A stretch of 12,323 nt of DNA from a virus. Shown in pieces: positions 7,625-12,323 of the stretch; the first letter of the stretch is position 1, and each line of letters starts with the position of its first letter. The notes beneath the pieces are model-generated. The model was given only the letters and a program-made list of their open reading frames with translations. It was not told where the DNA came from and searched no databases. Made by a program: the position numbers and the translations under genes. The stretch lies in UHGV virus genome UHGV-1615994. One strand, written 5' to 3'.

Positions 7625-8050
7625 ATGAAGAAATTATCCCTTTCACTGATGCTGAACGTGTCGCTGGCGCTGATGCTGGCACTGTCCCTGATTTACCCGC
7701 AGAGCGTGGCCGTCAATTTTGTCGCCGCCTGGGCGATTCTGGCGACGGTTATCTGTGTGGTTGCCGGTGGTGTCGGCGTGTATGCCACTGAGTATGTGCT
7801 GGAACGCTACGGGCGGGAGCTGCCGCCGGAATCGCTGGCCGTGAAGATTGTCACGTCGCTGTTTTTGCAGCCGGTGCCGTGGCGCAGACGGGCGGCGGCT
7901 CTGGTGGTGATGGTGGCGACGTTTATCTCGCTGGTCGCTGCCGGGTGGATTTTTACCGCGCTGATTTATCTCGTGGTATCGGTGTTCTTCCGGCTGATAC
8001 GTACGGCCTGCCGTCAGCGTTTTGAGGGGCGGGAACCATGTCAAAGCTGA
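7625..8050 (+). CDS. lysA: Lysis-timing membrane protein (P2 LysA-like), 141 aa
   Basis: 141-aa ORF with ACGGAG Shine-Dalgarno; several hydrophobic helices; position and length match P2 lysA. Confidence 0.85.
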   Translation: MKKLSLSLMLNVSLALMLALSLIYPQSVAVNFVAAWAILATVICVVAGGVGVYATEYVLERYGRELPPESLAVKIVTSLFLQPVPWRRRAAALVVMVATFISLVAAGWIFTALIYLVVSVFFRLIRTACRQRFEGREPCQS

Positions 8051-8463
8051 TGATTGTGCTGGTCGTGTTGTTATCGCTGGCGGTGGCGGGGCTGTTTCTG
8101 GCGAAGCATGAAAACGCCAGCCTGCGCGCCTCGCTGGACAGGGCGAACAACGTCGCCAGCGGGCAGCAGACGACCATCACCATGCTGAAAAATCAGCTTC
8201 ATGTTGCGCTCACCAGGGCAGACAAAAACGAGCTGGCGCAGGTGGCACTGCGTCAGGAACTGGAGAACGCCGCGAAGCGTGAAGCACAGCGCGAGAAAAC
8301 CATCACGAGGTTACTGAATGAAAACGAAGATTTTCGCCGCTGGTACGGTGCTGACCTGCCTGATGCTGTGCGCCGGTTGCACCAGCGCCCGGCCTGCACC
8401 GACGCCAGTGATTGTCCACAACGCCTGCCCGAAAGTGAGTTTTTGCCCGATGCCGGGCAGTGA
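8038..8463 (+). CDS. lysB: Inner-membrane spanin, Rz-like (P2 LysB-like), 141 aa
   Basis: Overlaps lysA by 13 nt. N-terminal transmembrane helix (LMIVLVVLLSLAVAGLFL) followed by a charged coiled-coil-like periplasmic region. Confidence 0.85.
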   Translation: MSKLMIVLVVLLSLAVAGLFLAKHENASLRASLDRANNVASGQQTTITMLKNQLHVALTRADKNELAQVALRQELENAAKREAQREKTITRLLNENEDFRRWYGADLPDAVRRLHQRPACTDASDCPQRLPESEFLPDAGQ

Positions 8464-8608
8464 CCCGGAGACGAACGGCGATTTAAGTGCCGATATCCGG
8501 CAGCTTGAGAACGCGCTGGCACGCTGTGCCAGCCAGGTAAAAATGATTAAACACTGTCAGGACGAAAACGATGCTCAAACCCGACAGCCTGCGCAGGGCG
8601 CTGACTGA
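8318..8608 (+). CDS. lysC: Outer-membrane lipoprotein spanin, Rz1-like (P2 LysC-like), 96 aa
   Basis: Starts inside lysB in the +1 frame, GAGG Shine-Dalgarno upstream. Signal peptide with lipobox (LMLCAGC), proline-rich mature region; extends past the lysB stop and overlaps the start of R. Confidence 0.8.
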   Translation: MKTKIFAAGTVLTCLMLCAGCTSARPAPTPVIVHNACPKVSFCPMPGSDPETNGDLSADIRQLENALARCASQVKMIKHCQDENDAQTRQPAQGAD

Positions 8609-9038
8609 TGCCGTCACGGTGCTGAAAACCAGTCCAGAGATGCTGCGGATATTCGTGGATAACGGGAGTATTGCCTCCACACTGGCGACGTCGCTGTCAT
8701 TCGAAAAGCGTTACACGCTCAATGTCATTGTGACCGACTTTACCGGTGATTTTGACCTGCTCATCGTGCCGGTGCTGGCGTGGCTGCGGGAAAATCAGCC
8801 CGACATCATGACCACCGACGAAGGCCAGAAAAAGGGCTTCACGTTTTATGCAGACATCAACAATGACAGCAGCTTTGATATCAGTATCAGCCTGATGCTG
8901 ACCGAGCGCACGCTGGTCAGTGAGGTGGGCGGCGCGCTGCATGTGAAGAATATCCCGGAACCCCCGCCGCCGGAGCCGGTCACCCGCCCGATGGAGCTTT
9001 ATATCAATGGCGAACTGGTGAGTAAGTGGGAGGAATGA
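8571..9038 (+). CDS. R: Tail completion protein R (P2 gpR-like), 155 aa
   Basis: 155-aa ORF; length and position match P2 gpR. Its stop is TGA at 9036-9038. Confidence 0.9.
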   Translation: MLKPDSLRRALTDAVTVLKTSPEMLRIFVDNGSIASTLATSLSFEKRYTLNVIVTDFTGDFDLLIVPVLAWLRENQPDIMTTDEGQKKGFTFYADINNDSSFDISISLMLTERTLVSEVGGALHVKNIPEPPPPEPVTRPMELYINGELVSKWEE

Positions 9039-9153
9039 GTTTAAGCGTTTTGAACACCGGCTGCCCGGACTTATTGAATCGCTGTCACCGTCAGGGCGTC
9101 GGCGACTGAGCGCCGAACTGGCGAAACGTCTGCGGCAGAGTCAGCAGCGCCGG

Positions 9154-9483
9154 GTGATGGCACAGAAAGCCCCGGACGGCACACCCTACGCGCCACGCCA
9201 GCAGCAGAGCGCCAGAAAAAAGACCGGTCGCGTTAAGCGAAAAATGTTTGCGAAACTTATCACCAGTCGTTTTTTGCATATCCGCGCCAGCCCGGAACAG
9301 GCATCAATGGAGTTTTACGGCGGGAAGTCACCGAAAATCGCCAGTGTGCATCAGTTTGGTCTGTCGGAAGAAAACCGGAAAGACGGTAAGAAAAGTGATT
9401 ATCCGGCGCGTCCCCTGCTCGGCTTTACCGGTGAGGATGTGCAGATGATTGAAGAGATTATCCTGGCTCACCTCGACCGTTAG
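9154..9483 (+). CDS. S: Tail completion / virion morphogenesis protein S (P2 gpS-like); canonical start only at 9154/9157
   Basis: Track ORF of 109 aa from GTG 9154 (ATG 9157). The same frame is open from 9022 and the upstream codons read like protein sequence (NEFKRFEHRLPGLIESLSPSGRRRLSAELAKRLRQSQQRR). A start at 9031 would give 150 aa, the length I recall for P2 gpS, but 9031-9033 is AGG. True 5' end uncertain; see findings. Confidence 0.7.
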   Translation: MMAQKAPDGTPYAPRQQQSARKKTGRVKRKMFAKLITSRFLHIRASPEQASMEFYGGKSPKIASVHQFGLSEENRKDGKKSDYPARPLLGFTGEDVQMIEEIILAHLDR

Positions 9484-9549
9484 TTGTGCCATTCCTGACA
9501 CCTCATCGTCACATTGCCGCCGGTATGACCCGGCGGCATCCTTCCCGTT
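9484..9549 (+). promoter_or_regulatory. Late promoter region upstream of the V-W-J-I-H operon
   Basis: 66-bp non-coding gap between S and V; in P2 a late Ogr-dependent promoter precedes V. Only imperfect dyads seen (TGT-N10-ACA at 9485-9500; TGT-N12-AGA at 9438-9455 inside the S 3' end), so the site is not pinned. Confidence 0.4.
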
Positions 9550-10185
9550 ATGAACACTCTCGCAAATATTCAGGAACTCGCGCGCGCACTGCGCAACATG
9601 ATTCGCACCGGCATTATCGTCGAAACCGACCTTAACGCCGGTCGCTGCCGTGTGCAGACCGGCGGCATGTGCACCGACTGGCTTCAGTGGCTGACCCATC
9701 GTGCCGGGCGTTCGCGCACATGGTGGGCACCTTCCGTGGGGGAACAGGTGCTGATTCTGGCCGTGGGCGGTGAACTCGACACGGCGTTCGTTCTGCCGGG
9801 GATTTATTCCGGCGATAACCCCGCGCCGTCTGCGTCGGCGGATGCCCTGCATATCCGTTTCCCTGACGGGGCGGTGATTGAGTATGAACCCGAAACCAGT
9901 GCACTCACGGTAAGCGGAATTAAAACGGCCAGCGTGACGGCTTCTGATTCTGTTACTGCCACGGTGCCGGTGGTCATGGTGAAAGCATCAACCCGCGTCA
10001 CCCTGGACACACCGGAGGTGGTCTGCACCAACAGGCTGATTACCGGCACGCTGGAAGTGCAGAAGGGCGGGACGATGCGCGGCAACATTGAACACACCGG
10101 CGGTGAACTCTCATCAAACGGTAAGGTACTGCATACCCATAAACACCCCGGCGACAGCGGCGGCACAACCGGGAGTCCTCTATGA
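9550..10185 (+). CDS. V: Baseplate central spike protein (P2 gpV-like), 211 aa
   Basis: 211-aa ORF, the P2 gpV length. C-terminal HTHKHP motif followed by a Gly/Ser/Thr-rich tip. Confidence 0.92.
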   Translation: MNTLANIQELARALRNMIRTGIIVETDLNAGRCRVQTGGMCTDWLQWLTHRAGRSRTWWAPSVGEQVLILAVGGELDTAFVLPGIYSGDNPAPSASADALHIRFPDGAVIEYEPETSALTVSGIKTASVTASDSVTATVPVVMVKASTRVTLDTPEVVCTNRLITGTLEVQKGGTMRGNIEHTGGELSSNGKVLHTHKHPGDSGGTTGSPL

Positions 10186-11442: not shown

Positions 11443-11965
11443 TTCGCGACTGCTGCCGACCGGCTCATCACCGCTTGAAGTCGTCGCCGCAAAAGCCTGT
11501 GCGGAAATTGAAAAAACGCCGGTCAGTATTCGTGAGCTGTGGAACCCGGACACCTGCCCGGCAAATCTGCTGCCGTGGCTGGCGTGGGCGTTTTCGGTCG
11601 ACAGGTGGGATGAAAAGTGGCCGGAAGCGACCAAACGCGCCGTTATTCGTGATGCCTATTTCATCCACTGTCATAAAGGCACTATCGGCGCAATCCGGCG
11701 TGTGGTGGAGCCGCTCGGCTATCTCATCAACGTGACGGAGTGGTGGGAAACCAGTGACCCGCCAGGCACCTTCCGGCTTGATATTGGTGTACTGGAAAGC
11801 GGCAATGTATCAGGAAATGGAACGGCTGATTGCCGATGGCAAACCTGCAAGCCGCCACCTTATTGGCCTGAACATTACCCGGGACATTCCCGGCTACCTG
11901 TTCGCCGGTGGTGTGGCTTACGACGGCGATGTAATTACGGTTTACCCCGGATAAGTGAGGAATAA
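11435..11965 (+). CDS. I: Baseplate protein I (P2 gpI-like), 176 aa
   Basis: 176-aa ORF overlapping the J stop by 8 nt, GGAGG Shine-Dalgarno upstream; length and position match P2 gpI. Confidence 0.9.
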   Translation: MSDSRLLPTGSSPLEVVAAKACAEIEKTPVSIRELWNPDTCPANLLPWLAWAFSVDRWDEKWPEATKRAVIRDAYFIHCHKGTIGAIRRVVEPLGYLINVTEWWETSDPPGTFRLDIGVLESGNVSGNGTADCRWQTCKPPPYWPEHYPGHSRLPVRRWCGLRRRCNYGLPRISEE

Positions 11966-12323
11966 TGAGCACAAAATTCAGAACCGTTATCACCACTGCC
12001 GGTGCAGCAAAGCTGGCAGCGGCAACCGCGCCGGGAGGGCGGAAGGTCAACATTACCACGATGGCCGTCGGGGATGGCGGTGGTAAATTGCCTGTCCCGG
12101 ATGCCGGACAGACCGGGCTTATCCACGAAGTCTGGCGACATGCGCTGAACAAAATCAGCCAGGACAAACGAAACAGTAATTATATTATCGCAGAGCTGGT
12201 TATTCCGCCGGAGGTGGGCGGTTTCTGGATGCGTGAGCTTGGCCTGTACGATGATGCAGGAACGTTAATTGCCGTGGCGAACATGGCCGAAAGTTATAAG
12301 CCTGCCCTTGCCGAAGGCTCAGG
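11965..12323 (+). CDS. H: Tail fibre protein (P2 gpH-like), 5' partial (first ~119 codons)
   Basis: ATG at 11965 overlaps the I stop (TAATG), GAGGA Shine-Dalgarno upstream. The frame is open to the window edge (MSTKFRTVITTAGAAKLAAATAPGG...); this is the conserved baseplate-attachment N-terminus. Confidence 0.9.
   Translation, partial: MSTKFRTVITTAGAAKLAAATAPGGRKVNITTMAVGDGGGKLPVPDAGQTGLIHEVWRHALNKISQDKRNSNYIIAELVIPPEVGGFWMRELGLYDDAGTLIAVANMAESYKPALAEGS

Follow-up and report, generated by a model that had tools for sequence, protein, structure and literature searches.

Gene S of the P2-like phages encodes a tail completion protein, and in the DNA examined here its reading frame opens with AGG where an initiator would be expected. 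The questions that this locus raises are whether the start codon has really been lost or has been misread, whether functional phages share the change, and whether useful S protein could still be made. By the window we mean the whole stretch of DNA that was analysed, 12,323 nucleotides of UHGV virus genome UHGV-1615994.

The junction of genes R and S

The window has the late-region layout of a Peduovirus, with Q and P on one strand and O, N, M, L, X, Y, K, lysA, lysB, lysC, R, S, V, W, J, I and H on the other, and its gene order lysC-R-S-V-W-J-I is also that of Wphi, pro483 and P2. It holds the late genes of a P2-like (Peduovirus) phage or prophage and comes from a metagenome assembly. Positions 1-302 lie just past Q, and at the other end 11965-12323 is occupied by 119 codons of the tail-fibre gene H, which is cut off by the end of the window; the integration site, the immunity region and the host are outside what the window covers. 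By public gene calls and Pfam the late genes, with the exception of S, have the lengths of their relatives, and the statement in the preliminary description that every other late gene looks intact is therefore right as to length; it does not extend to sequence, because lysB and I also have private missense changes. The features of the junction are as follows.

8571..9038, + strand: gene R, tail terminator or tail-to-head joining protein, 155 aa (open reading frame; PF06891, 151 bits; named R in the Wphi annotation)
9019..9021, + strand: TGA in the S frame, closing that frame upstream
9029..9033, + strand: GGAGG, a Shine-Dalgarno (SD)-like motif made by T>G (anti-SD duplex of -10.2 kcal/mol, against -5.2 with T)
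9031..9033, + strand: mutated S initiator AGG (base 9032 is G; T in 135/135 related loci)
9031..9483, + strand: S reading frame, tail completion protein, PF05069, 150 codons open, codon 1 AGG
9035..9109, + strand: out-of-frame ATG, forming ATGA with the R stop, and its 24-aa ORF in the third frame; not the S start
9157..9483, + strand: 108-aa product, the public gene call for S (GTG 9154 lies one codon upstream), without PF05069 positions 1-40 and with weak SD support

The 3' end of R reads ...TGG GAG GAA TGA. The S frame is +1 relative to R and is open from 9022 to its stop at 9481-9483, and since TGA at 9019-9021 closes it, an in-frame start farther 5' is impossible. The preliminary description had placed AGG at 9031-9033 and had counted from there a protein of 150 aa with an 8-nt overlap with R, and the letters agree in every respect, with 150 codons and a stop at 9031-9483 and 8 nt shared with the end of R. 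The translation of the frame begins VSGR-NEFKRFEHRLPGLIESLSPSGRRRL..., and upstream of GTG 9154 the S frame contains no ATG, GTG or TTG, so that canonical initiation in frame is first possible at GTG 9154 and ATG 9157. From the ATG at 9035, which is out of frame, a peptide of 24 aa would be read, again as described beforehand. This ATG is kept in three aligned annotated relatives, and it lies inside a 31-nt pattern that matched all 123 loci at that stage of the collection; ribosomes terminating R in normal phages therefore meet two ATGs 4 nt apart, the first of which alone gives S.

Comparison with relatives shows how the S start was changed. A search with 8900-9500 gave 76 phage records, 90-98% identical (96.5-97.7% for P2-like phage DNA), and in all matches listed 601 query bases are aligned with 601 record bases; there is therefore no indel. 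In Wphi, for which the depositors use the names R and S, in pro483 and in a P2 assembly, the R end and the S start fall at exactly homologous bases, S being a 453-nt gene that starts with ATG and begins 8 nt before the R end. In a four-way alignment Wphi, pro483 and P2 read GGGATGAATGAG, the window GGGAGGAATGAG. The sole difference at the S start is T>G at 9032, which makes AGG of the ATG in S codon 1 and at the same time replaces GAT by GAG in R codon 154 (D154E, a conservative change); all relatives have GAT there. The loss of the initiator by just this substitution had been one of three options offered in the preliminary description, and the collinear alignment supports it. We ruled out that S truly starts at ATG 9035 and that a single-nucleotide indel in the T run then shifted the frame, as the relatives are collinear and have their annotated ATG at 9031.

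The conceptual 150-aa S scores 145.8 bits against PF05069 (cut-off 24.3), with residues 3-148 on profile positions 2-147. With its closest full-length homologue (P0001) it shares 98% identity, the differences being confined to D9H, T12P and I122S. That homologue, an NCBI TPA entry from E. coli, is itself another minor S variant, 165 aa long, in which the stop codon is lost and the tail reads ...AHLDRYLCHSRHLIVTLPPV. The 44 codons upstream of 9154, which had been said to read like real protein, match the N-terminus of the gpS relatives except at D9H and T12P, and the open frame is thus no chance pattern. The window S resembles gpS of P2 and Wphi (PF05069, Phage_tail_S; UniProt P36934, 150 aa) in its position between R and V, its 8-nt overlap with R and its 150-codon frame, but differs from it in the AGG initiator and in the private changes D9H, T12P and I122S, found in no relative. 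The one feature of the gpS family that it lacks is a canonical initiator for the 150-aa protein.

Rarity and authenticity of the AGG allele

Loci were fetched from IMG/VR with a pattern that allows G or T at 9032; all 120 have T, as do 123/123 and later 135/135 related loci, and pattern searches for G or any other non-T base at this position gave no match in IMG/VR, GTDB species representatives or JGI metagenomes. As a further probe of rarity we used the 38-mer at 9017-9054, in which only a 28-base seed spanning 9032 can start a megablast match. The AGG form has 0 matches in 5,426 complete E. coli genomes and 0 in 50,697 phage records; the T-restored form, used as the control, is found at 1,711 places in 1,504 complete E. 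coli genomes. Exact protein look-ups with the 108-aa S and with I and lysB found no carrier but the window, those for I and lysB in a collection of 153 billion genes; with the V protein, used likewise to look for further members of the lineage, the genomes obtained were all unrelated and had an intact S. The preliminary description had allowed that P2 and its functional relatives might also have AGG; what they have is ATG, both in the 135 loci and at the 1,711 places in complete E. coli genomes. By these sequence comparisons the start loss is private to the lineage of the window and absent from functional relatives.

An allele that is missing from all large collections searched could also be a sequencing or assembly error, in which case the true sequence would be ATG and S would be normal. 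The window is an ENA metagenome contig (ERZ507963 NODE_1298) assembled by SPAdes with a k-mer coverage of 5.95, and of its 11 private substitutions 7 are amino-acid changing and 7 are transversions, four of these A:T>C:G, a spectrum unlike that of normal evolutionary change. Against this stands a second contig. Exact-protein look-up of R with D154E found the window and one further contig, ERZ27258572 k141_32954 (here L125; 1,026 bp, assembled by MEGAHIT), which spans window positions 8028-9053 and has both the AGG, with G at 9032, and the private T at 8441. L125 differs from the window at 9 sites, and at 9/9 both alleles occur among relatives, commonly so at eight; the differences are genuine population polymorphisms, and they are consistent with a different recombinant haplotype whose lysB haplotype is distinct from that of the window. 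Because two assemblies that come from different assemblers and represent different haplotypes agree on the rare base, a one-off error is unlikely, the samples possibly not being independent; an error would require the majority of reads to be wrong at one base in both assemblies. A search of the literature for the two ENA accessions turned up nothing. The option of a sequencing error, which the preliminary description had left standing, is weakened accordingly and keeps a small share of the probability, coverage being low. We therefore regard the AGG allele as very probably real and an error as unlikely. The allele is also a handy natural marker of a rare P2-like lineage, present in two ENA assemblies.

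L125 ends at window position 9053, two bases before the private C at 9055, and strains in that sample may branch at this point. The sites of D9H and T12P lie beyond its end.

Expression and function of S without its start codon

The literature places P2 gpS among the tail completion proteins (TCP, Ne1), alongside SPP1 gp16.1, lambda gpZ and Mu gpG; mutants in these proteins, P2 gpS included, are non-viable with a tail-head junction phenotype (PMC11099176). P2 S mutants are reported to have over-long sheaths (PMC11784142), and S amber mutants of P2 indicate a role in tail completion and head-tail joining (PMC11099176, PMC11784142). The same role at the tail-head interface is assigned to SPP1 gp16.1, lambda gpZ, Mu gpG and T5 p143, whose mutants are non-infectious (PMC11099176); the link of the window S to these proteins comes from the literature, no likeness to any solved structure being detectable. 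Searches of solved structures by sequence with gpS relatives gave chance thermolysin matches only (E > 0.07), and a Foldseek search of the PDB with a model of S gave nothing below E = 1.8.

The part of S that lies before the first canonical in-frame starts is strongly conserved. In family alignments of 30-36 homologues, with identity down to about 50%, eight residues of the lost segment are invariant (S19, R23, R24, A31, R35, Q38, Q39 and R41) and six are nearly so (F7, L11, L14, P20, K32 and L34). The AlphaFold2 model of S, built with 30 homologues, is of moderate confidence only (pLDDT 67.5, pTM 0.29) and was used for the two N-terminal helices only; these helices, at 5-17 and 20-44, make up the lost segment and have the highest local pLDDT (82-88).

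It is against this background that the public gene call must be judged. Were S functional as an N-terminally truncated protein of 108-109 aa, it would start at ATG 9157 or GTG 9154, and the call at 9157-9483 does yield a 108-aa product that scores 115 bits against PF05069, covering profile positions 41-147 alone. The missing 42 residues, however, hold these eight invariant residues and the best-predicted part of the model, anti-SD pairing upstream of GTG 9154 and ATG 9157 is weak and badly spaced, and no homologue of such length with an intact upstream region was found in the interior of a contig. A functional short S is unsupported, and we consider it very improbable; the 108-aa call is best understood as what is left of S in a start-codon mutant and should not be taken for a short variant. 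Two candidate families of shorter S proteins were also rejected: the 90% cluster that holds the 108-aa call (P0031) consists of contig-edge fragments and one interior nonsense mutant (L127, described below), and the 140-aa Salmonella S (P0012), taken as a possible natural N-terminal variant, sits in a deleted prophage remnant.

Middle-base mismatches to AUG form the poorest class of near-cognate initiators, and it is to this class that AGG belongs, as does AAG. The natural S start has weak anti-SD complementarity (-4.6 kcal/mol, with no spacing), and as it also overlaps the R stop, S probably relies on translational coupling to R. A scan of 8400-9700 for promoters and terminators gave nothing relevant. 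In E. coli, measured initiation relative to AUG puts GUG and UUG at 10-100%, CUG and AUH at about 1-3% and the other codons at 0.01-1% (bioRxiv 10.1101/063800), and with AGG in the last of these groups full-length S should drop by two to four orders of magnitude.

The substitution that removes the ATG also makes the GGAGG at 9029-9033, and this opens the question of whether the allele, if real, might be leaky, so that non-canonical initiation or termination-reinitiation would supply full-length or almost full-length S in amounts sufficient for a viable phage. The candidate restart codons are AGG 9031 and AAG 9043, the latter 9 nt behind the new GGAGG. Such leakage could draw on the low but measurable initiation at non-AUG codons (0.01-1% of AUG in E. 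coli; bioRxiv 10.1101/063800) and on a strong SD-like motif that adjoins the R stop; all 150 codons of S are still open, and the occurrence of the allele on two different haplotypes means that it has persisted for some time. Both restart codons, on the other hand, differ from AUG at the middle base, and a single nucleotide separates GGAGG from ATG 9035, which is out of frame, while no canonical start lies 5-9 nt downstream of the motif, where the S-frame codons are TTT and AAG. Relaxed constraint is suggested by the other three private missense changes of S, one of which puts a proline into predicted helix 1, and an allele frequency of essentially zero among more than 1,700 copies suggests counter-selection in spreading phages. 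We think sufficient leakage quite unlikely. Its more specific form, in which the AGG allele belongs to a viable lineage and S is made usefully by SD-tethered termination-reinitiation, GGAGG holding the ribosomes that finish R for a restart at AGG 9031 or AAG 9043, seems improbable to us; were the lineage viable, it would offer a natural case of an essential phage gene without a canonical start that is expressed via coupling to the upstream gene. The open state of all 150 codons fits a very recent lesion, or equally selection for a protein made in another way.

Programmed frameshifting at the R stop was considered as a route that needs no S start at all. In the prfB frameshift the P-site codon re-pairs in the +1 frame, and an SD-like element lies 3 nt upstream. 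A prfB-like +1 shift at GAA UGA G, stimulated by GGAGG, would yield an R-S fusion; a shift at 9036 enters the S frame exactly, and T>G puts an SD-like element beside an in-frame UGA. But GGAGG overlaps the P-site codon GAA and does not lie 3 nt upstream as in prfB, the tRNA-Glu on GAA cannot re-pair on AAU, and the arrangement is found in no relative. A frameshift of the prfB type was ruled out on spacing and tRNA re-pairing, and we give it next to no weight.

The reading that we hold to be probable is a real and rare T>G start loss, with S most likely null or a severe hypomorph and the prophage tail-defective and early in decay. A single transversion at 9032 changed the S ATG to AGG and brought D154E into R; full-length S would then arise from AGG by non-canonical initiation only, at roughly 0.01-1% of the AUG level, and products from GTG 9154 or ATG 9157 would drop the two conserved N-terminal helices. 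The prophage would still encode heads, lysis functions and most of the tail, with infectious tails not completed, and might persist by vertical inheritance or by complementation with S from a co-resident P2-like prophage. Supply of S by a second P2-like prophage is possible because complete E. coli genomes hold up to three copies of the region. Loss of S protein and of infectivity, which we infer, is plausible from the conservation of the N-terminus together with the literature on tail completion. Prophages often lose single morphogenesis genes through point mutation, and gene S, its family and such lesions are already well known; by this reading the change is an ordinary inactivating point mutation.

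Private substitutions and lesions of S among relatives

Eleven substitutions in the window are private when it is compared with 135 relatives; those that change amino acids are as follows.

9032, T>G, + strand: S M1R
9055, G>C, + strand: S D9H
9064, A>C, + strand: S T12P
9395, T>G, + strand: S I122S
8441: lysB S135F (also L42F in the long lysC frame); T shared by L125
11484: I A17V
11839: I C135W

The missense changes at 8441, 11484 and 11839 are each missing from 79-126 relatives, and the other private changes are one synonymous substitution in I (R72R), two synonymous ones in Q and one that is intergenic. S makes up 3.7% of the window but has 4/11 of the private substitutions, all amino-acid changing (binomial P = 5e-4, with few events, low coverage and a frame that is still open). 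No member of the S family alignment has H9, P12 or S122; the second of these is placed in predicted helix 1. All four private S changes are transversions, three of them T>G or A>C; in the whole window the seven transversions comprise four A:T>C:G changes (945, 9032, 9064 and 9395) and those at 9055, 11839 and 97. A spectrum rich in A:T>C:G is typical of a mutT-type mutator or of oxidative damage, and also of G-overcalling errors, any of which could contribute. The private S changes are consistent with relaxed constraint after the start loss, to which errors or a mutator background could have added.

Among 125 relatives that hold S whole, the protein is 150 aa long in 115, and there is one nonsense mutation and one truncation to 108 aa; single-gene S lesions among relatives occur at about the 1% level. 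The nonsense mutation (L127; Logan SRR19918042, 1375-1500) is CGA>TGA near codon 25 behind a normal ATG, and the truncation to 108 aa (L107, from IMG/VR) is probably due to a frameshift. A third case (L140; Salmonella GCA_008587825.1, 950-2068) is what remains of a degraded P2-like prophage: Y (holin) is followed directly by the 140-aa S and then by U and D, and K, lysABC, R and V-T are absent; its S represents a 90% cluster of 545 sequences. Like the window, these three carry independent lesions of S within late regions that otherwise look P2-like, which is what ordinary decay of prophages gives, but the lesions arose by nonsense mutation, by truncation and by deletion of neighbouring genes respectively, and none of them, unlike that in the window, is at the start codon.

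Variation was also seen immediately downstream of S. In two E. coli loci (L131, 2168-2923, and L135, 2183-2923) S, which has 152 aa there, and V are separated by an additional ORF of 246-251 aa that has no match in Pfam; the S-V spacer of the window is 66 nt only.
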